From IMG/VR virus record IMGVR_UViG_3300028833_000004: a stretch of 64,000 nucleotides of DNA; one strand, written 5' to 3'. Source of the stretch: a virus. The translations under genes and the position numbers were made by a program. Position 1 is the first letter of the stretch, and every line of letters begins with the position of its first letter. Shown here one piece after another: positions 3,459 through 42,221 of this stretch. The notes below the pieces were generated by a model, which was not told the DNA's origin, did no database searches, and saw only the letters and a program-made list of their open reading frames with translations.

Positions 3459-6400
3459 TTATATATTAACATCTTTTGTAAGTTTATATTTTATTACTTG
3501 TGGAGAAGCACTTCCAGACACCTCAAGTGTAAATATTGATGAGTTCTAATCAACTGAATCATCGGTTTGAAGAGCTGTGGTCCATTCATCTTGAAATTTC
3601 TAAGGTTGACTTAAAAATATAACATACTGTAATGAATAACCCTTGGGGAATTTTAATTGATAATCCTAGGCCGCGTGCCTTACTATAAAAATTACTTCAC
3701 CATTACTATTAACTGGAAAATTGTGTATATACTATGGATCAGTAGTAGCATCAACGTCAAAATCTATATCTTTAATTATCCTATTTTCATTTAATATTGC
3801 CTAATAGTAGGATCCATCGGCATTAATACTATATGGGTTACTAGTATCTTCTTTTGGAGTAAACCATCCAGAAGCTGCAACTGTTACAGACTATGATACT
3901 TTAAGTTTAGTTGATACTGAACAGCCTTTAAGTTGAGTGATTCCCTAAACAGTAATTGGGAACTCAACTCCATTGTCCTCATCTATTAAATCCCAACTAT
4001 CTACAGGATAGGCTATATAACGTTCCTCCCCATTAAATCTATCACTAAAATTAATTTTACCTTCTTTAAGTAATTGTAAATTTTTATCAGTAATTATTGA
4101 ACCATTATATTCCTACCCATAGATACTACATTTACAGGTTATAGTTACATCTTCAGTAAGTTGATATTGTTCTGAATTAGATATCTATTCACCATTAGCA
4201 AAATAAGTATATTCTGGAAGTAAGACCTTTATATCACTACACTATTCCCATCCATTATTAGTAACTTCGGCTTTATCACTATCAATATAATCCCAGTCAT
4301 CCATAGGTTCCCACGTACTAAGATCAGTTAACTTAAAAGTTTCTCCCCCAATTCTATAATTCTTCTAAGTGCCTTCTATCAGATTGATCTTTTGATATAT
4401 TATATCTGTTTGTGGAAAATCTTTATTATTAAATAAATTCTACAAATTCACAATTCCTGAATTCATATTATATTCAGATTCGCAATATACATTTTCTGAA
4501 TAAGATTCATCTGAAAATTCAACGGAAACATTTGGTAATTCTTCAATTGATATATTATAAGTAATTTTAGGAGAATATTGAGAGAATATGCATGTTATAC
4601 TTGTATCCTATCTTAAATTATTAATTGTGTATCCAGTTCTATAGAATATCTCATCAATAAATTCCTATCTCTACCAATCAGACGGGCAATAAAGTAAAGC
4701 CTCCTCAGGTTCCAATGTTGTAATTGCGACAGGATGATATTCTCCCCACTAATTAAGTGTTATTGTATAAGTTCCGCCATAAGGAAGTGAGAAATATTGT
4801 TTATTAAGATCATTATTAATATCCCACTTTAAATCTGGATAATCTGAATCTACAACTTTAATTGCATCTGCTGGTATACCTTTATTGCTTTCTTCTGCAT
4901 CTTTAATTAAGTAAAAAGTTATTTTAATTAACTTCTTATTAAAAATAAGATATATTGTTGGATTCTTATCATATATTGTGACAGAAGCACCATCACGTAT
5001 TAAGCCAGTCTAACTTCCATAATTTTCAAACACCCATCCATCACGTCTTGAAATTTTATAAGATGTTAAATCTATAGGTACTCCATATGGTATATCTGGT
5101 ACAGATATTGAAACTTGATCTGAGCCATATTGTTGATATATAGTTAATGCATATTTTATAGTTTCAAAATATATATTAACAGTAGTGTCTCCAAGCAATT
5201 CCACTGAGTCTAAAACGGATTTATCAGTAGACCTTGGACCATCATTAATCTATACGGAATCGAATCTTAATTTTAAACCACCTGCGTGATCATCCCAAGT
5301 AATGCTACCAATGCCACCCTAAACCATACGTCCATTATAGGTAGCACTAACATCATTATTTGAGTCTTCTTTGTTATCAATATAGCATTTTATAGTAAGT
5401 GTTACGGAGTTTTGGTCAGATTCTACTACAATTGTATGATCTTCTTCAATTTTAAAGGTGTATAAATAAGTAGAGCTATCAACCATAGTATAATTATTTT
5501 CATTTACAGAATCCTAATTATCCACAAAACTAGAAATGCCGTATCCAGAGCGTGGTCTAAAGTAACATTTAACTTCCTCTAAGTACTAATAAGTAGACCC
5601 TAAAGCTAGATCTGTGATTATAAAATCCTCACCAGAAAATGACAGCTCAGTATTTATTCCAGAGAATGTTACCTAATATTCCTCAGGTGTTACAATGGCA
5701 TATACAGTTATATCAGAATTTATATTAGAAATTGTAAAAGAATCATATGTACTTCCTCCATATCCCCACTTTTTAAAATTAAAATGAGGATCTATATTTA
5801 AATTCTATATAAAAGATGAATCTATAGTAATTTCATTCTTTGATATACCTGTAGTATAAGGTTCGCCATAGAGAACCGCGCCTTTATATTTAGATTCATA
5901 ATCTTCACCAACAACTTCTACTGTAAGAGTGTATGTTTTTGGTTTTTCTTCTTGTGGTATTCTTACAACCAACCGCCCATCTTTAGTAATCTCTACTCCA
6001 TAATATTCACCAGAAGCAGATTTGATATAAGATTTATCTGTCTCCCCACAAACTTTTGCAAGCCCAAGATTATTAGAATTGGCTTTTGGAACTGTAACAC
6101 TATCTACGGTACTACTTTTATTGGATTGCAGATTTATTTTAAATCCATCATTTAAAGACTCTTCTGATAAATCATATGTTGGGGCTTCTTTCTACTCGGG
6201 AATTGTTATAAATGCACCTTTTCGAATACCGCCCAGAGATAAGTAATACTATCTAGTATCTTTTTTTTGTTCTATGGTATAATCCTAATCCGAACCTGAA
6301 TTACCTATATAAAATGATTTTGAATATTTGTCTTTAGTAATGGTTAATCTTTTAAGTGTACTTCCATCCTCTAAAGATTCGGCATCAACATCTAAAGGCC

Positions 6401-7097
6401 AAGCAATTGCATCTACTACTGTATCACCTCTTTTAAGAACTATCCCATTTTTAATACCAACACTCTTATCAAGGTCTGCTGTATAATTACCGTCCGCATC
6501 AACTGAAAAAGGTTGCTCTTTTAAATGATACTCTGGTATATAAAACTCCCCAACATTAACTTCATCTTTGAGTAATGTTACATGGGTGTTATTTTCATCT
6601 GATGTTACGTCTAAAGTGTAATTTGGAATATTCTATACCTCAGGTAATGGGATTTCAACTTGGTGGGCAAAATCATCGGTTGTAAAAATAGTTAAGATTC
6701 CCTGGTCAAATTCCAGACGTTTGATCTTAGTATCTTTAAAAAATGCCTCACCAGCTGGGGACTCGTTTCCATCTAAATCTCTTCTGACTAATCTAACCCC
6801 ATTATCACCGGATTTTATAGCTGGTTCTAATTTATACTAACTGCTATTTATAACGAGGGTTGTTTCTCCAGTAGCTGCGCATATTACTTTTCTAAGTGCT
6901 TCAATAAGGACCCTGAAATCTTCTTTCTAATAATATTTAGGATCAGAATCGAATCTAATAAGAAGTTCTTCAAGTAATTCGCCCAACTCCTATTGTGAAG
7001 GATTGATAAGATGCTCATTTCTCGGTTCACATATGTCTAATCCCCTAACAACCGAGCAATCATTTATAGCAACCGATTTGTCTATATTAGTATTCAT
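3459..7097 (-). CDS. giant tail-fibre/receptor-binding-like virion protein (1212 aa), TAG-recoded
   Basis: ATG at 7097, TAA at 3459-3461, 3639 nt. About 30 in-frame TAG and zero TAA/TGA. In frame with track ORF 5010..5204. Frame spot-checked at 3 places. Confidence 0.75.
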
Positions 7098-8536: not shown

Positions 8537-8807
8537 CTTTTTTAGTTTTTCTTCCAACTTTTTTTAAAGGCTTTGGGGAAAGTTGTTTAGCTGCTGCAAT
8601 AACCTCTTCTAGGCTAGTATAAACATATGGAGATGCCTGTGTAGTATCATGCAATACAACGACCCCATTTTTTACTGTGTATACTTTATTTAATGTCTCC
8701 TTAAAAAATCTAATTGGAGATTCTTTAATATTATCCGAAACTGCGGATCTAAAAGTTGGACTTTCCCAACATTTTCTAACAATAAAATCAATAAATTTCT
8801 TTTTCAT
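8508..8807 (-). CDS. hypothetical protein (99 aa)
   Basis: Intact track ORF with ATG start, TAA stop and no TAG. Confidence 0.6.
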   Translation of the reverse strand: MKKKFIDFIVRKCWESPTFRSAVSDNIKESPIRFFKETLNKVYTVKNGVVVLHDTTQASPYVYTSLEEVIAAAKQLSPKPLKKVGRKTKKDDSGVKKTV

Positions 8808-9097
8808 TTTTCCTTATTTACATTATAAAATTTTTTTAATTTTTCTAAATCTTCTTGATTATATGCACATAATACAGTATTAACATTAAGCCTATATGTG
8901 TGTGTATATGGCATCTAATCATAATAATTTGGTTTCTCCTTAATAGGAATTCCTAAGTATTTATTTAATTCCAAATCCAAATTACTTATATCCTCAACTT
9001 CTTTAATTATTTTTGCATCAGGATATTTATTTTTAAGATTTTTAATATTTGGATAAGCTCTAACACAGCCATTTAATTCATATAAACATCCAACCAT
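8804..9097 (-). CDS. hypothetical protein (97 aa), TAG-recoded
   Basis: Track ORF 8915..9097 ends at TAG. The frame continues to a TGA overlapping ATG 8807. Confidence 0.55.
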
Positions 9098-9116
9098 CTG
9101 ATAATCAATTAATTAG

Positions 9117-9189
9117 TTGCCCTGAATGGATTCGAACCATTTCCCCAGCTTTTAGAGAGCCATCAACTAACCATTATTATGACAGGGCA
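9117..9189 (-). tRNA. suppressor tRNA, anticodon CUA (reads UAG)
   Basis: 73 nt. Acceptor TGCCCTG/CAGGGCA. Anticodon stem TGGCT/AGCTG with loop CT-CTA-AA. T-arm AATGG-TTCGAAT-CCATT. GG in D-loop. D-stem weak. Confidence 0.75.
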
Positions 9190-9212
9190 ATAAACCGCCT
9201 AAGCGGTTTATA

Positions 9213-9800
9213 TTAAAATTTAGCTTTCAAGATATTATCATGAAGTTCAAACTCAACATTGTGCATTTTAAGCAGTTCTAGTATAACTGCTGAGAGAAGC
9301 TCAGAATCAGAGATTTCTACTGGTTTATTGAGTTCCAACTCCTTTAAAACATCTTCCACTGAACGCCCCTCCTTAGGAGATTCCTTCTGAGGACAGTATT
9401 CTTTTGGGCATTCTTTAACCTCTTCAGTATCTAGAGCATCAAGAAATGCGTATATAAGTTTCTCAATATCTTTTGCTTCCTTATCTACCTTATTAGGATA
9501 TTCTTCCGTCTGGTGTTCTGTACAAGTAATTTCTTTAAGAGTTTTTGTTAAAAACTCCTTTGCCGGTTCGACATCATTCCAAATAGGATCAACCTTATCA
9601 TCTAAAAAATAACAGGTTAATAACTGCACTGCAGCTTTAAAGTTTTCCAAATCTTTCTCAGTTTTTCCGATAGCTTGTAAGAAGGCCCCAACACCATGAT
9701 TGAAAATAAATTCCTTCTCCTCATCTGAGAACTCGCACATTAGTTCATTTTCAAGAGTTTCAATTTGATTTAATTTAGCAACTGCTTCACAAAATTCCAT
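9213..9800 (-). CDS. acidic hypothetical protein (195 aa)
   Basis: Intact track ORF with no TAG. A hairpin AACCGC-ctaa-GCGGTT at 9193-9208 follows the stop. Confidence 0.65.
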   Translation of the reverse strand: MEFCEAVAKLNQIETLENELMCEFSDEEKEFIFNHGVGAFLQAIGKTEKDLENFKAAVQLLTCYFLDDKVDPIWNDVEPAKEFLTKTLKEITCTEHQTEEYPNKVDKEAKDIEKLIYAFLDALDTEEVKECPKEYCPQKESPKEGRSVEDVLKELELNKPVEISDSELLSAVILELLKMHNVEFELHDNILKAKF

Positions 9801-10012
9801 AAATTTTTAAAATTTTTAATTATTGATTCTTTTAAAACATTAACATTTAACACTAACCACATCCATATGGCAATTATACATTTTTTCATATCACTTCATC
9901 TTTTGTAATACAAAGTTACTACTTTTTTTATAAAATAAATTATCTTTTTTAAAATTTTTCCACTAAAATATATAACAACAGGAGAGAATTATATAATCCC
10001 CTCCTGTAACAA

Positions 10013-14249: not shown

Positions 14250-16469
14250 TTAGTATTTTTTATCGAGAACTTCATCATTCTATTTACCATCATCTAAATA
14301 AACCTAAGCAAGTTCTATTTTATTCCGGTTTTTGATTAGTTCCAACTCCTATTCCTTTAACTCTTTCTTAGCTTTGACCTCGTACCATTTGATATTCTGG
14401 TTCATCTAATTATCTTGCTATTCAATATTCAACTTACGCTCATTTAGCTGTGCAAGTTTCTTTGTAGATTGCTCTAATCTTGATTGCATCTACTACATAT
14501 TTTGTTGTGCCTCCTATAATTGTTGAGCAAGTTGTTGTATCTAATCGTGTTCAAGTTTTTTCTCTTTTATAGATTTTCTAAGAGCATCGTACATTTCCGT
14601 AAGAGATTTAGATTGCATTACTAAAGCTACTATTTCAACATCTACCTAATCACTCTATGCTAATTGAATAGCCAATTGCCTGATTGACTCCTATTCTTTT
14701 ATTAAATCAGCACTACCAGAAACATGAACATCATAATCAGTTTGGGAGTAATGTTCCGGTAAAAGTGTAAAAATCTGTTTTCTATTACCTAGAATAATCT
14801 AACCTGAAAGTCCATTTTTAAAAACTCTTCTGGCAACGTCTAAACTATCTGTTAACATTTCGGATACTAATGTATCCATAGCTTGATAATACTATTTGGT
14901 TATAATAAAAGATTGCTACATACCAACCTCAACATTAGCTACAGCATCTCTAGCTTGAATACCTCCTAATCGCTCTCTAAATACTCCGGTAATAGAACTA
15001 GCAATCTCTTCAGTCATCTATATAGCCAATTGAATGGCCTATAGACTACCTAACTAAACAGTATCATCGTATCCATTAAAATAAGTATTTGCCATCTAGC
15101 CTTCCTAAGAAGAATCGAATATAGATAATCCAGATTTTCTATAGGCCAAATATTTAGCAAGTCTCTCCTCAACATCGTCACCTAAAACTGTCGGTAAAAA
15201 TGATAGATCAACATGAGCTCCACGAGGTCCGGATAGTGCAATAGTGTTATCTTTATAGAAAAGAAGTAAATCGTAAGAATCTTGTAAATAAGCGGTTGCA
15301 AGCATTAAGGAGTATGGGGACCCATGCCCATCAGTATAATATATACCATTTATATTTAATCTAACCTCATTTGGTGCATCCATATCTCTGACGACATGTT
15401 TATCCTCTCCCCGTAATATATACATATCAGAGCCTATTCTTACAACCTCATATCTATTACCTTTAATTTTGCCGGACTTATCTTTAACCCAATCAATCCA
15501 CTCCACTTCATATACTGGAATTAAATCCCACTTCTAATTATAATCACCACCTTCAGGATGCACCCCAACACCATCAACTACACCAGGATTATGATAATCA
15601 CCACATCTAGCACCTAAAGATTTAACCAAAATAAAGTTGCTATGATAGTCTCCTCTATCAATGTATTGATCATCAATTCTATCTATATCGTCCTGGGACA
15701 TTTCCTCACCATATTTAATAAGGATCTCTTCTTTAGTCATCCATTTACGAACAACGGCACGATATCCATTTTTTATATATTTACTTTTTGGATCTTTATC
15801 AACAAAAACATTAATTGGATCCTCAATTTCTATTTTAAAATTGGTTCCTGCAGAAGTTGGAATAACTTTATAATAGGCCTCCCCAGAAATGAACAAATCT
15901 AATAAAATTTGTTGAAGTTTATTTTTAAAATCTATCTTTCTGGACTACATTATGTATTGAACAATATCCTATCCAGCTATTTCATAATTAGATATAAAGT
16001 TTAAATCCACAGATTCCTTTATATCATCTAATTGCTGTTGAATAGTTTGATCAACTATTTTCTGATCCTGCTGTTTGGGTCCAGATAATGCCTAATATAT
16101 AGAATTTTCTAAAAATTTAGAAAGCCAGTCATGAATCTCTTTAGATAACATTAACTATTTCTCTCTAAAAATTTTAGACAAAGTCCCCTAATCTTTACAA
16201 GATATTTTAGGTCTAATTTCTGTTGTCAAGTATTCACCTACAAGTGCATCTATATGTTTTCTAATTAGCGGAGTGAATGACATTGAAGTAGGATTTCCAA
16301 CTCCCTCATTTTTTTCGAGGTTTTCGTATTGGTAATGATCTCGTTTTCCCTAATAATAATTATAAGCTTTATATAGATGTTCTTTCTCCTTAACAAGATC
16401 CCCAATACAATAATCGGCCCACTCTATTAAATAATCATCAGATCCTTTCTTAAACTAAGACTTCCACAT
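14250..16469 (-). CDS. portal protein (putative, 739 aa), TAG-recoded
   Basis: ATG at 16469, TAA at 14250, 2220 nt, more than 20 in-frame TAG and no other stops. Joins track ORFs 15534..15896 and 15105..15506. Sits next to TerL. The size and the coiled C-terminus are portal-like. Confidence 0.6.
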
Positions 16470-16471
16470 AA

Positions 16472-16801
16472 TTATAAATTACTATCATTTGCATGTAGAA
16501 TAATCTACATATGTTGAGTTAAGTCTAATCGACTTTTTTTTAGTTGTTTTCTTATAAACTGCAAAAACTCTTCTTCGGTTTTACATTGTGTTGCATATAT
16601 AATCCCACCATATTGTGGTCCATGAACATACAAAGTAGCCTGATACCAATCACCATCATGAGTTGCTTTTATCGGAACTTCACTTATACAATTATAAACC
16701 TCTTCAATTATGTCAGTTATTTTTTTCTCAAGTCCATCCATTTTTTCTAACATTTTGCTCTTGTGTTGAAATAACTCCAAACACCTTCTAACCATATTCA
16801 T
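16472..16801 (-). CDS. hypothetical protein (109 aa)
   Basis: Track ORF 16505..16816 trimmed to the first ATG. It ends at TAG and continues to TAA at 16472. Overlaps the TerL 3' end; start uncertain. Confidence 0.5.
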
Positions 16802-18983
16802 TCTTATAATACCCAATAGTTCTGAGAATTTTTTGAGTAACTTCCTATTTAGGCCTCTTACCTAACATATCTTCATCGGCTAATAAAGCCATAGCAAATG
16901 CAGCGGTAAGGTCAAATTTACCTTTATTTTCTGGGGTATATCTAATTAATTCATCTATAACTTCTAGAAAATCTATCTAGTCACAATAATCATAAACATA
17001 TTGTTGGATTAACTCTATTTGGTGTTCAATAATTCCAGCTGTAGCTGGACATCCATATTGATTTGCATTCTATGTTTTAGAAGTAAGGGTTGCTCTAGGT
17101 CTTTTTAAGAAATATCCAGTCTATCCATACCTTCTAAAGTGTGTGAATATACTCATACGGGTTGCCTCAAATAATACTTTAGCATTATAAAACTCAGCTA
17201 ATTTTAAAGCTGTATCATGGGCCATACTTGGATCATCAGGTCGTTCTTTATATATAGCAACAATTTTTGGTGGTTTAAGTCCATACTATCGCCTGAAAAC
17301 AATTAAGCCATATTTTGATAAGTCAGTTTGACCTGTACTAGTTTCTTTACCACTATCAAAGCAGTCTGCCCCTATTACATATAAATTAATAGGAACTGAA
17401 CCGTCTTCTAATTTTATTGGTGGCTCAATCATATATATTGGCCCGTTATTAGACAATTCCATTTTAGGAACTGCACTTCTATCAACTCCGCCCAACTCTT
17501 TACTATATGGCCAAATAAGTTTAATGCCTTTTGGTTTTTCAACCATACCCTATTCAATATAGGTTTTCTATTCTGCCAGCTTTTCAGTATTGAAAATATT
17601 AGAACCCTCTAATATAAAGGCATCTTCTGGAGTAAAACAATACTCTGCCTTATCTTTTAATAAAGCCTCAGGATCTTCGATAGTACTCCACTGCTATTCA
17701 TAATATCTTTTAGCCGCCTCCTCGTCAACAACTCCTCGGTCATCAAATTTACCAAACCATAAAGTATAAGCAGGGATAAAAAATCCTGTGAATGCTTCCT
17801 AACCGTCTCTTGAATAGAAATGTCTGTAAGGCAATACTTGGTAAGCTTCTGGATTATAAAAAATACTTTTTAATCCTGAAAGGGCAGGGCCCGAATCACC
17901 ACCAGTTCCACCGGTACTTCTCTAACCAACTCTGTATCCTAAAATATCGACAAGAGGCCTTGATTGAATATAAGTATCTAAAAGCATGGGATCGGATCCA
18001 CACTCCTCAAAAATTAAATTATATACACGAGCTCCACGAAGTTTTCTTGGCTTATCGTGTACACGTCCCTCAATTACGGACATCCAACCAGTCTCATTCT
18101 TATCTTTATCTACTTTAGATGCTCGTTTATAAAACTAAGTATCAGCCTTCATTCTAACCCTTTTAAAAGCACCTTCTGTGCAGGTGTTTAAAAAGTCTAA
18201 TTCCTGCCAAACCTTATCTAAGGTATTTGTTACATAATCGACATTAAAAGCAGTAACCATATTATGGGAAGCCCTATGAAAGGAATAACCACAACATACA
18301 TCTGATGCAGACATCTAAGAAAATCCAACACCACGAGATTTAAAGACATTTACATCCTTTCCCAATTTTCTGGCCAATGCTTTATAGTGAAAATACTCAT
18401 ACTATTTAGCAAAGAATCTTGGAAAATCCTCTTCCTGAGATTCTTGTTTATTTTCGGCCAATACTGACGGCAGTCTGAAATAATTTATAAAGAAATAATT
18501 TTCACCTGTTAAAGTATATCTACCTATAGTAATCCCATCTTTACATCTATTAAATTCTTCTATCCAATGTTCTCTGTGGGCAAAAGTTCCGGGGATTAAT
18601 TGTGTATATCTACCAGTTCTCCTATAAGTATCGGCAGCAACTGTAAATAGTTTTGGATCAAAATCTAAACCTCTATTTGCAGTAATTGGTCTATATCCAG
18701 TTAATTCGTATGATAATTCAGGATCGAAATATTCAATCGGATCTCCAATTTTAACATCCCACCCATCCTCATCATAAGATTTCTCTTCAACAACTGGTTT
18801 TGGTTCAGGTTCCTTATAATTAAGCATAGCTTGATACTCCTAATCATTTTTCTCTTTTTTAGTTGGAGTTTTTCTTTTCTTACTATACTTTTCATCAAGT
18901 TCCTATGCTTTAGCTATTAATTCCTCTCGTTTTTTCTCTCTCCAATATTTTTTTGATAGTTTTTCTAATTCCTTTTCATCCAT
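16728..18983 (-). CDS. terL: terminase large subunit, TAG-recoded
   Basis: Single frame from 18983 (alternative ATG at 18827) to TGA at 16728, with more than 10 in-frame TAG. Motifs KSRGVGFS, RGARVYNLIFEECG (Walker-B-like) and ENYFFINYF. Confidence 0.7.
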
Positions 18984-18985
18984 AA

Positions 18986-19564
18986 TCAATCAAATAATCC
19001 TGGAGTTGTATCACCACGCAAACCAGTAGCTTCGTCAAGTTCTTCTTTATATTGGACCTCTAAATCTTTTAAGGCAGCTAATGCTTTAGAAAGATTTTGC
19101 ATTTCTGTGAGAGTATCTTTAATTTTATATAAAGGCCTACCTTCACTATCAGTTAAAGAATAATCAATATTATCTATGAAGACCTTCATCTTATGAATAT
19201 TATTATTATAAGATTCAATCATTTGTCCTATAATAGATGAACTATTTTGAAGTTCTTGATACTTTCTACAAGCGGCTCTAAATACTTCATCATTATATTC
19301 GTCTTCAGTTAATCCAGAAGCTTCCATAGCATATTTATGGCGGTTTGCCGGGGTGTCCTTACTTCCAGGAGCACCCCAGTCTATTGCCATATAAATATAT
19401 ACTAATTCTCTAAAACCTCTCAGTTTCTTTTCGCCTGTAGGGTCTTCCTCACAGATATTTCTTTCATTAGTCCATAAATCAGCAAATTCCTTAACAAGGA
19501 ATATTTCTGGTTCGTTTACGATGATTTTATTTTTAGTATTATCGTAAGCAAAAAATTTTATCAT
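18986..19564 (-). CDS. hypothetical protein in the small-terminase position (192 aa)
   Basis: Intact track ORF with no TAG. Its TGA is coupled to the next ATG (TGATTATG). Confidence 0.6.
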   Translation of the reverse strand: MIKFFAYDNTKNKIIVNEPEIFLVKEFADLWTNERNICEEDPTGEKKLRGFRELVYIYMAIDWGAPGSKDTPANRHKYAMEASGLTEDEYNDEVFRAACRKYQELQNSSSIIGQMIESYNNNIHKMKVFIDNIDYSLTDSEGRPLYKIKDTLTEMQNLSKALAALKDLEVQYKEELDEATGLRGDTTPGLFD

Positions 19565-20330: not shown

Positions 20331-20675
20331 TTAATCTTTTTTAAATCTTTCTGATAGGCCTTCTGCAATTATCGCTTTAACAGAAACCTCATTTAATACC
20401 CATAGGTCATGCCCAAAGAACGGTGCTGGGAATACAGCTCGATGATCAAATAAAACATCATCTCCAGCTTTTACAAACTCACATTCAGGACCTGCCTCAA
20501 TAACTTTACCAAAAAATGCAGTATTTTCTAATTTTTCAACTAAACCTGAATCGGGATTAACAAAATCCTCTGTCATTTCTACCTCATTTTCTTTTACAAT
20601 CTTTTTATAAGGATTGTCAAAATAAATCTCAATCAAGAGATTATTCATAATTGGATAAATTTCTTTCTCTTCCAT
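20331..20675 (-). CDS. groES: GroES-like co-chaperonin
   Basis: Track ORF. FGKVIEAGPECEFVKAGDDVLF resembles the GroES core. The start overlaps the GroEL stop. No TAG. Confidence 0.6.
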   Translation of the reverse strand: MEEKEIYPIMNNLLIEIYFDNPYKKIVKENEVEMTEDFVNPDSGLVEKLENTAFFGKVIEAGPECEFVKAGDDVLFDHRAVFPAPFFGHDLWVLNEVSVKAIIAEGLSERFKKD

Positions 20676-22135
20676 TATTCATTAACAATTAAACAATTTG
20701 CACTAATTATATTAGTTGCAGCACTAACTGCATTTTCTAAAGTTTCTTTTACTACTAAGTATGGCTCAATAATCCCATTCTCAAAAGCATCTCCAGAAAC
20801 TCCAGTCCTAATATTTAAAACATCCCAATAATCTTCTACACTTCCACTTGAACTCGTTGCCTGATCCAATAGGATTTGTGTTGGGGCATATAAAGCCTTC
20901 TTTAAAAGTGGAACATTTAAATTCTTAGCAGCTTCTCTTAAAGCTTTACCACATCCAGGAAGTACCCCTCCTTTTAAAGCACAAGCTGTAGCTGAAATTG
21001 CATCTTCATATAAGTCACATCTAGTCTTAGCTTCTGTCTCACTATATCCACCTACGAATATTTTAGCAAGCCCACCAGAAAACATTGCAAGACGTCTTCT
21101 ATGAAATTCATACTCAATCTCAGGGAGTGGATTCTCAAGGATCTGTTTTACCATATACTTACGTTCCTCAACGGCCTCTGTATTAGAATTATAGCCTATA
21201 AAGGTTGTATCATCTTTTGTAATGATAACTTTATCACAACACATTGAATCACCTAAAACTGCTTTAATATCTTCTAAAATAGTTTCTCTCATGACTCCAA
21301 ATTCAGGACTTTGGATTAATCCTGCCTGCATTCGCCCACCTTTGTTTGGATCAAACATATTGTGATATATCAACATTGTAATAGAAGAATCGAAATCTGG
21401 GGCAATTAATAAAAGTGATTTTCCTTGATCAATCGCCTTTTGCCAGATCTCTTTAACTTTTCTAGTTTCTTCCATTTTAGTTTGGGAGATATATACCTGA
21501 ACATTATTCAATTCTATATTTCCTTCACTAGTATTGATAAGATATGGGGAAAAGAATCCTGAATTAATTCGAAAGCCTCTGCTGTACTCTATCCTATCAG
21601 TCACGCTCTCACCCTTCTCATATAATACAAGTCCATCTTTTCCAACCTTATCATAAGCTTCGGCAATTGTTTCACCAATCAACTCATCCCCATTGGCTGA
21701 CAATGTTGCAACTTTTTTAATATCTTCTTTATTAGAGATCTGCTTTGTATGTGATTTCAAATCTTCTAAAACCAAATCCCTCTCTTTAAATAATTTTCTA
21801 GAAATTTCTATTGGATTGCCAAAGTTTATATAATCATTTACAATAGCCCTTGTAAGTATTGCGACGGTACTAGAACCATCTCCGACTTCTTTTGCAGTTT
21901 TTACTGAAACTTCTTTAATAAGATCTACACCAGCTTGTATATATGGATCTAGTACTCTAACTGCTTCAGAGACGGTCTTTCCATCTTTTGTTATTTTTAT
22001 CCCAGCAGGATTTTTAATAGCTACTGTTGCTGCATTTGGACCATAAGTACACTGAATTGCATCTGTAATTAAATTAACACCCTCTAATAGTTTTTCTCTG
22101 GCAATCTCACCAATTAATACACAATCATTATTCAT
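20675..22135 (-). CDS. groEL: GroEL-like chaperonin (Cpn60 family, 486 aa)
   Basis: Track ORF. Contains GPNAATVAI..KITKDGKTVSEAV and VGDGSSTVAILTRAIV, compared with GroEL GPKGRNV..TKDGVSVA and AGDGTTTATVLA. No TAG. Confidence 0.8.
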   Translation of the reverse strand: MNNDCVLIGEIAREKLLEGVNLITDAIQCTYGPNAATVAIKNPAGIKITKDGKTVSEAVRVLDPYIQAGVDLIKEVSVKTAKEVGDGSSTVAILTRAIVNDYINFGNPIEISRKLFKERDLVLEDLKSHTKQISNKEDIKKVATLSANGDELIGETIAEAYDKVGKDGLVLYEKGESVTDRIEYSRGFRINSGFFSPYLINTSEGNIELNNVQVYISQTKMEETRKVKEIWQKAIDQGKSLLLIAPDFDSSITMLIYHNMFDPNKGGRMQAGLIQSPEFGVMRETILEDIKAVLGDSMCCDKVIITKDDTTFIGYNSNTEAVEERKYMVKQILENPLPEIEYEFHRRRLAMFSGGLAKIFVGGYSETEAKTRCDLYEDAISATACALKGGVLPGCGKALREAAKNLNVPLLKKALYAPTQILLDQATSSSGSVEDYWDVLNIRTGVSGDAFENGIIEPYLVVKETLENAVSAATNIISANCLIVNE

Positions 22136-26875: not shown

Positions 26876-26933
26876 AATTTCATTTATTTAATTTTCCACA
26901 CTTTTCTATAAAAGTTTAATTATATATTTTTAG

Positions 26934-27004
26934 CAGGTCTACTTCGAATCGAACAAAGGATCTCAGTTTTGGAGACTGATGTTTTACCACTAAACTATAG
27001 ACCT
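26934..27004 (-). tRNA. tRNA-Trp (CCA)
   Basis: Full cloverleaf. Acceptor AGGTCTA/TAGACCT. D-stem GTTT/AAAC. Anticodon loop CT-CCA-AA. T-loop TTCGATT. Confidence 0.85.
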
Positions 27005-27027
27005 ATCAGTAGAGTATAAGAGTTTGG

Positions 27028-27098
27028 ACACCATAGTAAGAATCGAACTTACGATAACAGTTTTGCAGACTGTTGCCTTTCCACTTGGCTATATGGTG
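27028..27098 (-). tRNA. tRNA-Cys (GCA)
   Basis: Acceptor CACCATA/TATGGTG. Anticodon stem ACAGT/ACTGT with loop CT-GCA-AA. T-arm GTAAG-TTCGATT-CTTAC. Confidence 0.8.
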
Positions 27099-27255
27099 TT
27101 GAAACAGCGTTTTAAGGATTTACGGTACGCTGTTAAGAGAAACCTCTGCCACATGGGCAGGGTGTTATAATGGAACCTCTCTCACCGATCCCACCAAGGC
27201 TCATGCACTACCTGTGGGCTGATACTCTTCTATTGCATTATTCAAGTATCCAGTG
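27099..27255 (-). ncRNA. structured spacer inside the tRNA cluster (possible small RNA)
   Basis: GC-richer 157 nt with an 8-bp hairpin AACAGCGT/ACGCTGTT, a CTGCC/GGCAG hairpin and an enclosing AGAGA/TCTCT helix. No tRNA fold found. Confidence 0.3.
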
Positions 27256-27329
27256 CGGATTCAGTAGGACTTGAACCTACGACCCTCTGATTAACAGTCA
27301 GATGCTCTAACCAACTGAGCTATGAATCC
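27256..27329 (-). tRNA. tRNA-Asn (GTT)
   Basis: Acceptor GGATTCA/TGAATCC. D-stem GCTC/GAGC. Anticodon loop CT-GTT-AA. T-arm GTAGG-TTCAAGT-CCTAC. Confidence 0.85.
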
Positions 27330-30135: not shown

Positions 30136-30165
30136 AAAACCCGGTTTATGCCGGGTTTTTCTTTT
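30136..30165. terminator. bidirectional terminator hairpin
   Basis: 9-bp stem AAAACCCGG/CCGGGTTTT at 30136-30144/30151-30159, with A/T runs on both sides. Abuts the stop at 30165. Confidence 0.65.
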
Positions 30166-30929
30166 TATACTTTATTACGACGATGCACGTGGAAGTGCGG
30201 ACCAGTAGTAATTCCAGGAATGGGATTATCTTTCTCATTTTTAATATAAATGCCCTTATCTCTCATATATTGTTGTATCTCTGGATCATTATCAATAATC
30301 TATTGAGCGAGTTCATAATCATTATCGATAGGGGTAAAATCAACGGCATTACCTTGATAGTGTGTTGAATTTTTTACATGCCCAGACTAAGCAAATCCCT
30401 CAGTAACTCTAACTCCAATCCCCTTACTAGTTAATAACTTTAAGAAATCGATAACATCATTGTGTACATTATCTAATGTTATTCCTTTTTTAAATATTAA
30501 CTCCCCTGGTTCTATATCCCTGGATTTAATATTTGTAGTCCTAATATAATCTCTTAATTTTAAATCAGGATTAAATTTAGACTTATTATCAAGATTTTTA
30601 TCAAGATTGGCTGAAATCTCTTTATATCTTTCAAAAGCTTGAAATCTCTAATTGAACCGATCTGGAAAGAGATCAGAGTAATCCTTGTATTCTGGCTGAG
30701 ATGTATTTGGCAAATATGTAGAGTTATAAAACTCTAAACCTTCTGCTCCTTTTTTAACCCATTTACGTGCGTTCTAAGCAAATGTAGCCTTCTTTCTTAT
30801 AGAGGCTAGTGGAGAATTTTTTCCCTTTCTAATACATTCTTCTGTAACTTTCCCACCACAGTAATCTGTGAAGGAACCTCGTTTTGAGGGTTTTATATGA
30901 ATCCCACCTTGTTTAAATATATTGATCAT
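30165..30929 (-). CDS. LAS-family zinc peptidase (peptidase M15-like cell-wall hydrolase), TAG-recoded
   Basis: ATG at 30929, TAA at 30165, 4 in-frame TAG. Contains STHYQGNAVDF (H-x6-D) and PHFHV (HxH). Confidence 0.65.
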
Positions 30930-30999
30930 AACTAAAAATTTTTTACAAAATTAAAAATTTTTTTAAAAAAATAAAAGTCAAAAATAGGCCCCCCGGGGT

Positions 31000-31600
31000 T
31001 TTTAAATGAGGGGGTGTTTAGGTGCAGAAGTTGGGTGTAGATTGGAAGTTTTTGTGAGTTGTGGGAGCGGGAGGACACCTAGGCAGCATGGCCCCCCGCA
31101 AAGCGTATGGGAAAACAATACCCAGCAGGCCTCAGGCCCTGCCGGGTATAATTTTCCCATAGACACAATTTCGCGGAGGAGCGTGATCGCCTTTCCTGGA
31201 AATGGCTGTGTTGCACCAATAGCAGCATGGCTCCGCGGCCTCACGAAATTGTGTCGACATCCCGACAGGTGACCTGGCGTGCTAACCGACTGGGATGTAA
31301 AACAGCACTGCATCTTCGGATGTACCAGGACGGGGCGGTTGGAGACAACCAGACGAAACCGTGACGGAAGTAGTCTAGTAGAATCATGCAATCGGAGATG
31401 GTATCAAAGATTAAGCACTAATTCACAATAGATGTGGAAAGTCTGAATCCCTCTTTAAAGTGTAAGGAGATGACCGTTGATAAAATGCTTTCAACAAGGT
31501 AAGACAAGTACTGCTATAATGAATTCAAACGGGCAATCTTAACTGCCCCAAAGCTCTCTGAGTTCTGGAATCTTAGTAGGAGAGTTATAATTAATAAAGA
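31000..31600 (+). ncRNA. large structured non-coding RNA candidate
   Basis: Nested helices 31106-31115/31152-31161 and 31162-31178/31231-31255. UUCG hairpin at 31310-31323. GAGA-loop hairpin at 31337-31350. Only overlapping low-quality ORFs on both strands. Confidence 0.4.
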
Positions 31601-31608
31601 TACTTGGT

Positions 31609-32019
31609 ATGAAGACATATCAAGAAAATGTTAAAGCATTAATTAGTAAACTTAATGCCTCATTTGGCTTTAAGTTTTACTTAGAAGAGATGGCCAATTT
31701 TGGCCGTCCCTTCACAATTCTCCGTGAGGGGACTGGATACTGTTTAGATATACAGTATTCAGAATCTGGGTTTGGAACAACCGACCTGGGCCTTTTTGGG
31801 CCCTCGCCAAAGGTTCCAAAACCAACAGACCAATTGCCGGCCATTGCGATAGTGACCGAAACGTGGGACGATTGGTACCCACAAATTAAAGACACCAATG
31901 TGGAATTCTGTCAAAGAATTCCAATACCGTTTCCGCAATCCCACACCAAAGAGGTGTGGCATACGTGCGGCTGTGCGCATACAATACACACCCACACCAG
32001 GGTAATTGTGGAGTGCTAG
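31609..32019 (+). CDS. hypothetical protein (136 aa; C-terminal third doubtful)
   Basis: Track ORF. The N-terminal 100 aa look protein-like. Ends at TAG, then TAA two codons later. Confidence 0.45.
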   Translation: MKTYQENVKALISKLNASFGFKFYLEEMANFGRPFTILREGTGYCLDIQYSESGFGTTDLGLFGPSPKVPKPTDQLPAIAIVTETWDDWYPQIKDTNVEFCQRIPIPFPQSHTKEVWHTCGCAHTIHTHTRVIVEC

Positions 32020-32063
32020 CCCTAAGGCCCATCTATGGAGCAGGACACAGTTCGATTCTGTGT

Positions 32064-32351
32064 ATGGGCCCTATGCCTATGAAACAAGATGGAGTCCCTG
32101 CTGGATGCATGCGATTTAACGTCGCCTTGTATCAAGCAAGACTCGAATCCTTGGAGAGTTTCTTAGGCTCTAATCCGTATGCCGGGGAATACGAACTGGC
32201 CTTATGCTGGGGAGTATCTCTGTCCGCGGCAATAGCCACCATGCATAAAATAATGGTTGGGATTAGAGCCGGGATACTTCAATCAAAATTCCCAATAAAT
32301 GGGAAGAAGATTGGAGTAAAAGGAAACTATTATGTCGTATATAAGGCATAA
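32064..32351 (+). CDS. small hypothetical protein, possible HTH (about 95 aa)
   Basis: In-frame ATGs at 32064 and 32079 within track ORF 31956..32351. LESLES motif shared with ORF 32471. Confidence 0.45.
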   Translation: MGPMPMKQDGVPAGCMRFNVALYQARLESLESFLGSNPYAGEYELALCWGVSLSAAIATMHKIMVGIRAGILQSKFPINGKKIGVKGNYYVVYKA

Positions 32352-33180: not shown

Positions 33181-33849
33181 ATGGCAACAAAGAATATTAT
33201 TGCCGAAGTAATTAATGCGAGCAAAGATGCTCGCCAATTTAGTGAGGAAGAGCTTCAAAAGAAGCTTGCCTCTCTAAATGGGCGAGATGGCTCGCCCCTC
33301 AAAGCCGAAGAGGAGCTTTGGCTCCTCCCGGTGCTCCTTCCAAGCTGGAAGTGGAAGGGCATTGAGGGTGAATACCCTGCACTTCCAGCCATCAACCAGA
33401 ACGGACACCTGGTCGTAATAGGTCTTGGAAGCCTCGCTGGAGGTTCTGGGTACCTAGAGGATCCAGGCGAAGGAACCTGGGAAATTTCGGAGACCGGATG
33501 GTGGTATCTAAAACCGTCTGAGGTCCCCGAAGGTGGTAGCAGGGCCACCAAAGTCTGGGGGTTGTCGAGGAGTCTTAAAGACTCATTCAACGACAACCTC
33601 GAGCTCAGAGGGGTCGTATCCCTCAAAGTAGAGGAGGACGGCTATTGTTACGGGCCGAGGCTCGTAAAGGCCGGGAGTCCCGACGAGGGACGAGAGAGGG
33701 CAAGCCTGCGCTTTAAGCGCAACACCCATTTCTGGGAAGGCAAGGCCCAGCCAATAACCGCCATTCCGAGCAAACTTAAAAAGTTTGCAGAGAAGCTGGG
33801 TTTACCGATGGAATGGCTAAAACCATTCCCAGCTGACTTCTACTGCTGA
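33181..33849 (+). CDS. hypothetical protein (222 aa), starts MATKN
   Basis: Track ORF 33160..33849 trimmed to the ATG. Followed by a strong terminator. Confidence 0.65.
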   Translation: MATKNIIAEVINASKDARQFSEEELQKKLASLNGRDGSPLKAEEELWLLPVLLPSWKWKGIEGEYPALPAINQNGHLVVIGLGSLAGGSGYLEDPGEGTWEISETGWWYLKPSEVPEGGSRATKVWGLSRSLKDSFNDNLELRGVVSLKVEEDGYCYGPRLVKAGSPDEGRERASLRFKRNTHFWEGKAQPITAIPSKLKKFAEKLGLPMEWLKPFPADFYC

Positions 33850-33850
33850 A

Positions 33851-33892
33851 ATAAAGGATCCTAGAGAAATCTAGGATCCTTTATTTTTTTTG
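33851..33892 (+). terminator. rho-independent terminator
   Basis: 14-bp perfect stem 33851-33864/33871-33884, then T8. Confidence 0.85.
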
Positions 33893-33970: not shown

Positions 33971-34639
33971 ATGGCAACGAAAAATTCGTATCTGGGTGAA
34001 AAATTCAACCCAGCAGATGAGAGCGATCGTGCTCTCAAAGACATGAAGGCACTCGAATCAGTTAATTTTGAGCGCCAAGCTCCATTAACTGAAGGTGCAA
34101 CTTATATCCTCCTACCGCAGGAAAATACAGCGGCTGTATATACTATCCCAGGAGTTGGTGATAGAGTTTCTCGCCGATTCTGGGCAGTTGAGCTTAACCG
34201 AAAGAATGAGCCTGTATCTATACGTAGTATAGGCTATTCATCGATAGCCAAAATGGGATATCAAGAAAAGACTTCAGCTCAACCTGCTGCACCAGAGGTT
34301 CCTGCATATCAGGATAAAGAAGGAAAATGGCACCCGAAACGTGGGTTAAGTTATGTGTTCTCATGCGAGGACCACAACTTCATTAAGGCAAACCCAGAGA
34401 CAATGCTTATGGAGATAAAGACTCCTACGGCATTGAAAGTGATGCGTAGAGCCGAAGTGTGGGTTGCATCCTTTAAGGATCAAGCATTAGTAGTAAAGGA
34501 CGGGATGATTGTTCCTGAAGTAGATGACCGATTCGTGTTCTTCAAAACCCTCGTAGCCCCAACTGAAGATATAGTTGAGGCTTGCAAAAAGGTCCTTGAA
34601 AATGAAGACTCAATTCAAGACTGCCTTTACCTGTTGTAA
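33971..34639 (+). CDS. hypothetical protein (222 aa), starts MATKN
   Basis: Track ORF. Same length and same first 5 residues as ORF 33181. Confidence 0.65.
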   Translation: MATKNSYLGEKFNPADESDRALKDMKALESVNFERQAPLTEGATYILLPQENTAAVYTIPGVGDRVSRRFWAVELNRKNEPVSIRSIGYSSIAKMGYQEKTSAQPAAPEVPAYQDKEGKWHPKRGLSYVFSCEDHNFIKANPETMLMEIKTPTALKVMRRAEVWVASFKDQALVVKDGMIVPEVDDRFVFFKTLVAPTEDIVEACKKVLENEDSIQDCLYLL

Positions 34640-35615: not shown

Positions 35616-35984
35616 ATGCAAACAATTATGTATCAAGATGAAAAAGGATATAGATATATCCCAGTTTTCCAACCAGAGTTATCAAACTTGTTTGAATATA
35701 CTCGAAAAAAAGTATATCACATCTATACAGATAATCCTAAATGGTGTGGAAAAATATTACCAGAAGTAGTAAATGACACATCTATAGACGTAGGTACAAG
35801 AACTTATTGGCTGGAGAGAACTAATAACTCCATAGAGTGGGGACTAAAACCTTATCACAAGATATCATTTAAAGACATTGAAGAATTAGATGAAGATATA
35901 TGTGAAATATATAATTTTGAGTCAATTGGAATTGATTCAAGTGGAGTTTATGAATATGAAATTATCTATCCCTATGATGATTAG
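35616..35984 (+). CDS. hypothetical protein (122 aa)
   Basis: Track ORF. Terminates at TAG (35982-35984). Confidence 0.65.
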   Translation: MQTIMYQDEKGYRYIPVFQPELSNLFEYTRKKVYHIYTDNPKWCGKILPEVVNDTSIDVGTRTYWLERTNNSIEWGLKPYHKISFKDIEELDEDICEIYNFESIGIDSSGVYEYEIIYPYDD

Positions 35985-39846: not shown

Positions 39847-39919
39847 GCCGCAATAGCTCAATGGATAGAGCAACTGACTTCTAATCAGTAGGTTGTAAGT
39901 TCGATTCTTACTTGCGGTA
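39847..39919 (+). tRNA. tRNA-Arg (TCT)
   Basis: Acceptor GCCGCAA/TTGCGGT. D-stem GCTC/GAGC. Anticodon loop CT-TCT-AA. T-arm GTAAG-TTCGATT-CTTAC. Confidence 0.85.
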
Positions 39920-39990
39920 CTAGGGAGAGAGGAGTATCTCCACCCTCAAACACTCCCAACTGCTTACTAATCAGTTAAATATATTTTTTT

Positions 39991-41199: not shown

Positions 41200-42174
41200 A
41201 TGAAAATATTAACAGAAAGAGATGTGAATAAGCATGGCTGGGGTATAGTATCGGTAATTACATCCGACATGCTAGAGAAATATGGGTATACACAAATTGG
41301 AGATTATGCTTTTTGGGGCGATGATCTTGAATCAATCATAATACCTAATAGTATAACAAAAATTGGAATTGGCGCGTTCAGAAATTGTCCTAAACTGACT
41401 TCAGTAACAATCCCCAATAGTGTAACAATTATTGACTCTAGGGCTTTTTTAAATTGTAGTAATTTAACCTCAATCAAGATTCCAAATAGTGTAACAGGTA
41501 TTGGTATACATGCTTTTAATGGTTGTTCTAATTTAACTTCAATAGTAGTAGAAGCAGATAATCCAAATTATGATAGTAGAAACAATTGCAATGCTATAAT
41601 AGAGACTGCTACAAACACTCTTATCGCTGGTTGTAAAAATACAATTATTCCCAATAGTGTAACAAATATTGGAAGTTTTGCCTTCTATAGCTGTGATGAT
41701 TTGACATCTATAATAATTCCCGATAATGTAATTAGCATTGGAGATGATGCTTTCTGCAAAACAGGTTTGAAATCCATATCTATTCCAAATAGTGTTACAA
41801 GCATTGGATATTGTGCTTTTAAGGATTGTAAAATTAACATACCTAAAAAATATGATAGTCTGGGTAGACTAATTGCATATAAAGGATTTGATTCTAAGAT
41901 GCAATGTTATGATCATTTTCAATACATTGAAGGACATACTTATAAAACTTCTGAAGCTATATTATGTGAATGCGGATTCCACGCTTGTACTAATCCCTTA
42001 GATATATTTTCTTATTATTTCGGAAGAATAAATAAAAATGTATATATACATGAGGTATATCTTGATGATGTAAGTACTGAAAAGGGTACGGATAGTAAGG
42101 TTGTATCTAAGAAAATAACTATTGGTCGAAGATTAACCATTGAAGACATAAACAATATAATACAAGAAAAATAA
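41200..42174 (+). CDS. BspA-type leucine-rich-repeat protein with conserved Cys/His C-terminal domain, paralogue 1
   Basis: Repeats IPNSVTxIGxxAFxxCxxLTSI. C-terminus [46 protein letters not shown]. Confidence 0.75.
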   Translation: MKILTERDVNKHGWGIVSVITSDMLEKYGYTQIGDYAFWGDDLESIIIPNSITKIGIGAFRNCPKLTSVTIPNSVTIIDSRAFLNCSNLTSIKIPNSVTGIGIHAFNGCSNLTSIVVEADNPNYDSRNNCNAIIETATNTLIAGCKNTIIPNSVTNIGSFAFYSCDDLTSIIIPDNVISIGDDAFCKTGLKSISIPNSVTSIGYCAFKDCKINIPKKYDSLGRLIAYKGFDSKMQCYDHFQYIEGHTYKTSEAILCECGFHACTNPLDIFSYYFGRINKNVYIHEVYLDDVSTEKGTDSKVVSKKITIGRRLTIEDINNIIQEK

Positions 42175-42221
42175 AAAAACATTTGTATAATTCAAAAACA
42201 AAGTAAAAAAAATAAACAAAC

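Follow-up and report, generated by a model that had tools for sequence, protein, structure and literature searches.

How might a phage whose late genes are filled with in-frame TAG codons have these codons read as an amino acid in a host that keeps the standard code? We explored this question for a stretch of 64,000 nucleotides from the viral record IMGVR_UViG_3300028833_000004 of IMG/VR (hereafter the window), in which a 73-nt tRNA gene with a CUA anticodon lies at 9117–9189 on the minus strand, within a module of TAG-containing late genes. We put the probability at roughly 85% that this CUA tRNA is a functional decoder, which would insert glutamine at UAG throughout the late module. Comparison with related phages and with bacterial tRNAs suggests that it descends from a tRNA-Gln lineage of the Bacteroidota type, and that the TAG-rich late genes are translated in a standard-code host. 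Suppressor tRNAs and late genes with TAG reassigned to glutamine are already known from crAss-like phages; what is specific here is a divergent 73-nt subfamily of the tRNA and the small conserved cassette in which it sits.

The recoded late module extends over 1126–30929 on the minus strand and comprises 33 genes, which contain 200 in-frame TAG codons and all stop at TAA or TGA. Reading TAG as sense lifted the coverage by long open reading frames (ORFs) in the first eight 4-kb bins of the window from 0.00–0.37 to 0.57–1.00. This effect was confined to the minus strand between 1 and 31 kb, where reading TGA as sense produced no change. Counted as a glutamine codon, TAG makes up 47.7% of the glutamine codons of the module (200 TAG versus 219 CAA or CAG). 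The recoded genes include those for the portal (14250–16469, 28 TAG) and the large terminase TerL (16728–18983, 16 TAG), both identified by PHROGs, and for a structural protein of 1212 residues (3459–7097, 30 TAG), all on the minus strand. An endolysin-like gene, with a weak PHROG match, lies at 30165–30929 (minus), and PHROGs also identified GroEL and an exonuclease.

The plus strand carries a standard-code module (33181–63544) of 37 genes with no in-frame TAG. Stops on this strand are TAA in 33 cases, TGA in 14 and TAG in two. The two plus-strand genes with a TAG stop, at 35616–35984 and 60764–61336, are followed by backup in-frame stops 18 and 2 codons later, so that read-through by a suppressor would add only short tails. 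A sequence-only reading of this stretch had claimed that the phage supplies the decoder for its own TAG codons, and the distribution of TAG bears this out: the CUA tRNA lies in, and on the same strand as, the module with 200 in-frame TAGs, while the 37 plus-strand genes have none.

Some genes of the late module do without TAG. A GroES-like/GroEL pair in the middle of the module (20331–22135, minus) is wholly TAG-free, and GroEL uses TAG for none of its 12 glutamine codons (P=4e-4), which suggests that it must be made independently of suppression. Avoidance is marginal in ORF 9800→9213 and in ORF 18986–19564, with 0 of 5 glutamine codons in each (P=0.039).

A near-identity search of 50,697 phage records returned no DNA relative of the 15 kb around the tRNA, and we therefore used relatives found at the protein level. 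The best annotated tblastn matches of TerL were cr-phages and crAss001, at 26–28% identity, with two unannotated human-gut contigs at 40–43%; relatives from IMG/VR, on contigs of up to 172 kb, reached 55–65% identity. TerL and portal both matched crAss-type PHROGs. Proteins identical to those of the window are found on two contigs, one of 158,647 bp in ENA (ERZ27257202 k141_6601460) and one of 117 kb from JGI, and the CUA tRNA is 100% identical between independent assemblies, with no polymorphism signal. Placed by TerL and portal similarity and by its profile, the phage, from the gut or rumen, would be a large-genome crAss-like phage represented by a contig of ~159 kb. Its profile (large genome, late-only recoding and several tRNAs) matches that of the ‘Zeta’ group described by Yutin et al. 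2021, whose genome sizes those of the relatives (113–188 kb) also resemble; we liken it to this group by profile. Its host range is presumably Bacteroidota, with a Prevotellaceae or Bacteroidales species of the rumen or gut as the probable host.

We extended the analysis along this contig beyond both ends of the window. The 7 kb to the left are still TAG-recoded and hold no further tRNA, and the 9.5 kb to the right encode Thy1, RNase H and PolA and likewise no tRNA. In the ~81 kb examined of the ~159-kb contig, no CUA tRNA other than that at 9117–9189 was found, and neither the scanned proteins nor the precomputed Pfam hits of the extensions included a synthetase or release factor. In a standard-code relative, the 78 kb examined contained no tRNA of any kind.

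To establish which amino acid TAG encodes, we compared the late proteins, with TAG translated as X, to the DNA of relatives by tblastn and recorded which residue each X faced, leaving out positions at which the relative has a stop of its own. Pooled over nine relatives, glutamine stood opposite TAG at 132 of 363 positions, a fraction of 0.36 compared with a self-conservation of 0.39 for genuine glutamine. Evaluated with substitution spectra from the same alignments, the log-likelihood (logL) of the residue at TAG was −836.9 for glutamine, −1112.0 for lysine and −1112.4 for glutamate, and the standard-code relative MT835470.1 alone also placed glutamine at the top (−126.6 versus −133.1). At the codon level, relatives present CAA (105 times), CAG (27) or TAG (42) opposite a TAG of the window and TAA or TGA in 0 of 405 cases, and their own TAGs lie opposite CAA or CAG of the window 30 times. 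Because TAG interchanges with CAA and CAG, never with TAA or TGA, and the glutamine spectrum fits, TAG behaves on these alignments as a synonymous glutamine codon across the lineage. Proteomics has shown TAG to encode glutamine in two other crAss-like phages (Peters et al. 2022, PMC9523058), with which this comparative assignment agrees. We also considered CAG as the favoured ancestor of TAG and rejected it, the share of CAG being 0.20 opposite TAG and 0.24 opposite CAA/CAG (P=0.51).

The tRNA gene itself was identified by two predictors. ARAGORN called five tRNAs in the window, one of them at 9116–9189 on the minus strand with anticodon cta. The Rfam model RF00005 matched 9117–9189 (minus) over its full length (model positions 1–71 of 71) at 43.8 bits, relative to a gathering threshold of 29 bits, with an E-value of 5e-06 for the whole window and 1.6e-08 in a local run. 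In the Rfam alignment, read along the minus strand, the acceptor stem pairs at 7 of 7 positions (UGCCCUG/CAGGGCA), with U1-A72 as its first pair. The discriminator is A73, at 9117, and CCA is not encoded 3′ of it, the bases there being CUAAUU. The connector contains a single inserted nucleotide, after U8 or between positions 9 and 10, and leads to a weak D-stem, UAAU/GUUG (U·G, A-U, A-U, U·G), with the D-loop AAUGGUUA containing G18G19. The 5-bp anticodon stem UGGCU/AGCUG carries a 7-nt loop, C-U-CUA-A-A, with U33 and the anticodon at 9155→9153. A 4-nt variable loop (GGGA) and the T-arm AAUGG-UUCGAAU-CCAUU complete the structure, in which the universal tRNA nucleotides U8, A14, G18G19, U33, G53-U54-U55-C56 and A58 are all present.

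Thus, the 73-nt cloverleaf of the sequence-only reading is accepted by both ARAGORN and Rfam, and backed by the covariation described below. The anticodon stays CUA under both predictors, and the perfect acceptor stem, canonical T-arm, C-U-CUA-A-A loop, U1-A72 pair and weak D-stem that it had listed are all seen in the Rfam alignment. It had also placed the tRNA between late genes on the same strand, without naming that strand; the strand is minus, and the flanking minus-strand ORFs are 9800→9213 and 9097→8804. The four other tRNAs of the window are Trp-CCA, Cys-GCA and Asn-GUU, clustered in the late module (26933–27329, minus), and Arg-UCU (39847–39920, plus).

The RF00005 score is modest, and the minimum free energy (MFE) structure of the single sequence was not a cloverleaf (z-score −1.86); we therefore tested the fold by comparison with relatives. 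A search pattern that combined the D-loop, the CUCUAAA loop and the T-loop matched CUA tRNAs on 19 viral contigs of 113–188 kb and on 65 metagenome contigs, and the anticodon loop was CUCUAAA in 21 of the 21 CUA tRNAs first collected. Across 12 distinct related CUA tRNAs, 98.0% of cells were paired in the canonical cloverleaf, 18 of the 21 pairs showed changes on both sides, and the covariation score was 0.809, compared with at most 0.21 for slid registers. Judged from this comparison, the fold is under selection, beyond chance. The covariation outweighs the non-cloverleaf MFE, a common outcome for AT-rich tRNAs that lack modification, and we regard the MFE as uninformative.

Within this family, the window tRNA belongs to a 73-nt subfamily together with those of four other loci (L026, L207, L160 and L002). 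The extra nucleotide is common to all five, and 97.1% of their cells are paired. Rfam and MAFFT both select the D-stem register that pairs better in this subfamily (90% versus 80% paired), and the two central D-stem pairs of the window tRNA (A-U and A-U) are double-compensated, the relatives having U-A or G-C at one and G-C at the other. Because the L207 and L160 tRNAs score 49.1 and 48.1 bits on RF00005, the modest score is, on this comparison, a trait of the subfamily and not decay of the window copy. Scans of IMG/VR and metagenomes found no close homologue of the window-type tRNA.

None of the 12 family sequences has a strong pair at position 1:72, which is U-A in six, U·G in three and a mismatch in three. 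This pair has a role in glutamine identity (PMC9976931), which its weakness in the family would fit. One branch of the CUA family (L013, L017 and metagenome loci such as L164, L168 and L186) combines a mismatched 1:72 (U·U or C·U) with discriminator G and an encoded CCA. Some environmental CUA tRNAs (L161, L166, L175 and L220) have G1-C72 and CCA and seem to be of different origin. A tRNA with a UUA anticodon, of the ochre type, was also observed at 1470–1540 of L018 (IMGVR_UViG_3300045988_066369, a related phage contig of 153 kb), 2.3 kb from its CUA tRNA.

Where does this family come from? The contigs of the relatives also carry tRNA-Gln(UUG) genes, which their CUA tRNAs resemble: the two share U1-A72, A73, the variable loop and the D-arm GGUGUAAUGGU(U)AGCAC, and neither encodes CCA. 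We scanned one genome per prokaryotic species with the D-arm motif of the relatives’ CUA tRNAs, leaving the anticodon free. The scan found at least 123 tRNAs, and 117 of the 123 listed were tRNA-Gln, mostly from Bacteroidales. Among 75 sampled Bacteroidota tRNA-Gln genes, 73 have A73 and 66 combine U1:A72 with A73 and no encoded CCA, and the window tRNA has all three. The discriminator A, treated by the sequence-only reading as odd for tRNA-Gln, is instead the norm in Bacteroidota. A covariance model for tRNA-Gln (R1), built on 59 Bacteroidota genes among the matches listed in the D-arm scan, gave 78–93 bits for the phage tRNA-Gln(UUG) genes and 49–71 for the relatives’ CUA tRNAs; no other isotype in these loci scored above 47. 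A chain of intermediates connects the window tRNA to this lineage, with an identity of 0.80 between the window and L026 tRNAs and of 0.83 between L026 and a Prevotellaceae tRNA-Gln. The anticodon of the window tRNA is CUA, not the YUG of tRNA-Gln. Bacteroidota tRNA-Gln anticodon loops are UUUUGGU or UUCUGGN and that of the CUA family is CUCUAAA, so on this comparison loop positions 32, 37 and 38 are changed besides position 36.

Several observations weigh against a glutamine-decoding tRNA of this descent. The window tRNA scores 34.2 bits on the Gln model, compared with 46.8 for the Trp, 39.6 for the Arg, 33.3 for the Asn and 30.4 for the Cys tRNA of the window, and with the loop masked its identity is 0.71 to tRNA-Glu and 0.70 to tRNA-Gln, from comparators that were chosen by D-arm and are biased to that extent. 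It lacks the G10-C25 pair (U·G instead) and the D-arm GGUGUAAUGGUAGCAC, and has the extra nucleotide between positions 9 and 10. G10 and C24 (position 25) are invariant in the 59 Bacteroidota tRNA-Gln genes listed, an invariance that is partly built in by retrieval with the D-arm motif, and both the G10-C25 pair and the D-arm GGUGUAAUGGUAGCAC are kept in the relatives’ CUA tRNAs. In E. coli, G10-C25 is a GlnRS (glutaminyl-tRNA synthetase) contact (PMC9976931). Furthermore, the score of 43.8 bits on RF00005 is below the 64–77 bits of the four other tRNAs of the window, the promoter candidate described below amounts to a single AT-rich octamer, and the other ~78 kb of the contig may encode a release factor, a GlnRS of the phage or another suppressor.

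These points divide the comparison of identity elements with tRNA-Gln of the host phylum that the sequence-only reading had suggested: the acceptor end (U1-A72, A73, no CCA) agrees, and G10-C25 and the D-arm do not. They also divide its statement that the charged amino acid cannot be read from the sequence, which holds for the window tRNA taken alone, scored below the Trp and Arg tRNAs on the Gln model, and fails once relatives are compared (the logL values above). Direct tests would not file the window copy as tRNA-Gln; its proposed descent runs through the intermediates, and its link to tRNA-Gln rests on the acceptor-end features, these intermediates and the meaning of TAG. We read the window copy as a divergent member of a family derived from tRNA-Gln.

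The alternative that survives best, although we consider it improbable, is that the window tRNA is a decaying or poorly functional copy and that TAG is read by another suppressor, encoded elsewhere in the genome (~78 kb) or supplied by the host. It draws on the lowest tRNA score in the window (43.8 versus 64–77), on the weak D-stem, the absence of G10 and the extra connector nucleotide, yet four stems are fully paired, the D-stem changes are compensatory on both sides and not random, and the universal nucleotides and the CUCUAAA loop are intact. The same architecture recurs in L207 and L160, whose scores are similar (49.1 and 48.1 bits) and whose neighbours are conserved, which argues that these features were inherited under selection. 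Detected suppressors and recoding match imperfectly according to Yutin et al. (PMC7886860), and our inspection covered ~81 of ~159 kb; in those ~81 kb there is no other CUA tRNA, and an efficient amber suppressor would not be expected in a standard-code Bacteroidota host.

Less probable again is a functional tRNA charged with a different amino acid, such as Glu, Lys, Trp or Tyr, so that TAG would not mean glutamine. The near-equal identities to tRNA-Glu and tRNA-Gln (0.71 and 0.70), the 34.2 bits on the Gln model and the lost G10 would leave room for this, as would the mischarging of CUA-anticodon tRNAs by several synthetases (PMC9976931). Against it, the spectrum opposite TAG favours glutamine by ~275 logL units over lysine or glutamate, and TAG swaps specifically with CAA and CAG in relatives. 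U1-A72 is moreover an antideterminant for the Glu system, in which tRNA-Glu has G1-C72 (PMC9976931), E. coli GlnRS glutaminylates amber-anticodon tRNAs (PMC9976931), and only TAG to glutamine has been seen among TAG reassignments in phages of standard-code hosts (PMC9523058; 10.1101/2021.08.26.457843).

That the sequence is a tRNA-Pyl, or no tRNA gene at all but a cloverleaf arisen by chance, can be set aside with near certainty: ARAGORN does print ‘tRNA-Pyl’ and the single-sequence MFE is not a cloverleaf, but the ARAGORN label is set by the anticodon only, strong covariation and the RF00005 E-value of 5e-06 exclude chance, the canonical G18G19, T-loop UUCGAAU, 5-bp anticodon stem and 4-nt variable loop differ from tRNA-Pyl, which has no G18G19 or T-loop consensus, a 6-bp anticodon stem and a 3-nt variable loop, and no pyl-like gene was found among the annotated proteins, an annotation that covered part of the ORFs.

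Comparison with known suppressors places the glutamine-decoding CUA tRNA more precisely. The E. coli suppressor supE (glnV44) is a tRNA-Gln with a CUA anticodon, a single anticodon point mutant that retains G73 and G10 and is a modest suppressor. The phage tRNA resembles it in its tRNA-Gln-type body, CUA anticodon and weak U1-A72 pair; supE is charged by GlnRS and inserts glutamine at UAG, as we predict here. Unlike supE, the phage family has A73 and the loop changes at 32, 37 and 38 that produce CUCUAAA, and the window copy also lacks G10. Efficient amber suppressors such as supF have the loop CUCUAAA, in which A36-A37-A38 provides the context for modification of A37, of the i6A37 type. The C-U-C-U-A-A-A loop of the phage tRNA is thus identical to that of supF-type and engineered efficient amber suppressors (the ‘extended anticodon’), whereas its body and amino-acid identity differ from those of supF, a Tyr suppressor.

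Among phages, suppressor tRNAs and recoding of late genes from TAG to glutamine have been described in crAss-like phages (Yutin et al. 2021, PMC7886860), and a survey of gut phages put forward a code-switch and lysis-timing model in which host GlnRS was proposed to charge the suppressor (Borges et al., 10.1101/2021.08.26.457843). The window shares with the code-15 Crassvirales a crAss-like TerL and portal, a contig of ~159 kb compared with 113–188 kb for relatives, late-only TAG, a phage CUA tRNA and TAG as glutamine, and we see no difference in kind. It differs in that its tRNA belongs to a divergent 73-nt subfamily with U10·G25 and an extra connector nucleotide, and is found far inside the structural module, preceded by a TAG-free ORFan, rather than in a tRNA cluster. 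We did not find the tRNA-Gln ancestry proposed here or the uniform CUCUAAA loop set out for crAss-like suppressors in the papers that we read. TGA-recoded Jade phages carry a ‘code-change module’ of a suppressor tRNA, TrpRS and RF1 upstream of the lysis cassette (Borges et al., 10.1101/2021.08.26.457843). In the window, a gene with standard code (here TAG-free) similarly adjoins the suppressor tRNA in or beside the recoded late region. Unlike the Jade module, no synthetase or release factor accompanies it in the ~81 kb examined, and the neighbour is an ORFan whose TAG avoidance is marginal (P=0.039).

We next considered the neighbourhood of the tRNA and its likely expression. Directly upstream, at 9213–9800 (minus), lies an acidic ORFan of 195 residues with no TAG among its 5 glutamine codons. 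It has no PHROG match, and its sole match among 5.8 billion proteins is itself. Between this ORF and the tRNA, a 9-bp tetraloop hairpin, UAAACCGC-UUAG-GCGGUUUA (9190–9211, minus), begins 2 nt past the ORF stop and ends 1 nt before tRNA position 1. Its predicted free energy is −12 kcal/mol (z-score −3.66) and it has no U-tract; modelled in this way, it is probably a processing element or one that stabilises the 3′ end of the mRNA, or a weak terminator. A late ORF of 97 residues with one TAG (8804–9097, minus) starts 19 nt downstream of the tRNA.

Further upstream, a candidate Bacteroidota-type −7 box, TAACTTTG, is located at 9911–9918 (minus), 111 nt from the start of the ORFan. The full Bacteroidota −33/−7 pattern was not enriched in the window (5 versus 4.5 expected), and nor were sigma-70 promoters in a scan of it (16 versus 21 expected). 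A terminator scan found 7 hairpins compared with 1.1 expected, including a 13-bp terminator-like hairpin with a T-rich tail (9978–10007, minus), which may close the upstream transcription unit before the candidate promoter. The ORFan and the CUA tRNA could possibly form an autonomous co-transcribed unit, which we offer as a hypothesis only.

The L207 locus has the layout of the window, with a TAG-free ORF stop, a hairpin, the tRNA and a homologue of ORF 8804–9097. This homologue is 58% identical and located 18 nt downstream of the CUA tRNA, and the hairpin occupies the same position with a different sequence (free energy −13.5, z-score −3.78). In L160, the CUA tRNA is preceded by a 160-nt AT-rich spacer with a −7 box. 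More distant relatives place their CUA tRNA upstream of an exonuclease–TerL block, and on this comparison the layout is therefore conserved only within the 73-nt subfamily. In L010 and L001, a homologue of ORF 8804–9097 is present and the tRNA is absent. The upstream ORF was considered as a conserved partner of the suppressor tRNA and rejected, since it is an ORFan with no homologue near other CUA tRNAs and is unrelated to the upstream ORF of L207.

We propose the following route from gene to decoder. Transcription of the tRNA would proceed on the late strand, perhaps in a short unit that starts at the candidate Bacteroidota-type promoter and includes the TAG-free ORFan. The gene structure suggests that RNase P and 3′ trimming would release the tRNA while the conserved hairpin caps the upstream RNA, and that the CCA-adding enzyme of the host would complete the 3′ end, as it would for those host tRNAs that also lack an encoded CCA. 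Host GlnRS would then charge glutamine by recognising U1-A72, G2-C71, A73 and C34/U35, even though the tRNA has A36 and has lost G10. The supF-like loop CUCUAAA, with A36-A37-A38, is seen in the anatomy of the tRNA and is expected to make it an efficient reader of UAG in competition with RF1 at ~200 TAGs. Standard-code genes could be translated before the suppressor builds up, so that virion and lysis proteins would be delayed, as in the published code-switch model.

A bolder version of this proposal is speculative, and we think it rather unlikely. The 73-nt subfamily would have given up G10-C25 and gained the connector nucleotide with TAG still meaning glutamine, and its conserved cassette (TAG-free ORF stop, hairpin, tRNA, late ORF), if transcribed alone before the late genes, would be a minimal self-contained ‘code switch’. 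Charging would then reveal either GlnRS rules in Bacteroidota that are unlike those of E. coli or a phage helper, perhaps the ORFan or a product encoded elsewhere in the genome.

The window has other features that lie away from the tRNA. At the junction of the divergent modules, which is also the turning point of the GC skew, a stretch at 30950–32250 is GC-rich (0.39–0.46 compared with ~0.31), has no convincing ORF under either code and gives an MFE z-score of −3.8. It contains long GC-rich helices (24-nt arms, 31106–31161), the sequence GCAGCATGGCCCCCCG repeated at 31083 and 31222, and a T-arm-like CACAG-TTCGATT-CTGTG near 32,050. Searches of this stretch (30.9–32.3 kb) matched neither an Rfam family nor anything in the phage collection, and none of the fetched loci has a homologue of it. 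Possible readings are an undescribed structured RNA, the remnant of an intron and an origin region. Two adjacent plus-strand ORFs close by, 33181–33849 and 33971–34639, encode exactly 222 residues each, both starting with MATKN in unusually GC-rich DNA, and are parted by a perfect 17-nt inverted repeat at 33849–33886. They have no Pfam match and no significant mutual similarity. Three tandem paralogues occupy 41200–43845 (plus), each with a BspA-type leucine-rich repeat region and a DUF7666.

The phage of this window would thus be one more well-documented case of a phage that recodes one codon for its late genes and carries its own decoder. In practical terms, annotation of the contig needs TAG as glutamine on the late strand only, as portal, terminase and tail genes otherwise break into fragments. 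The comparative detail that it adds is a suppressor family of large crAss-like phages which appears to derive from a host-type tRNA-Gln, with the Bacteroidota acceptor end kept and the supF-like loop uniform. The lineage of the window would show how far the body of such a tRNA may drift, to the loss of G10, while TAG still means glutamine, and its tRNA may serve as a handy natural substrate for the recognition rules of Bacteroidota GlnRS and for the proposed timing of the code switch.

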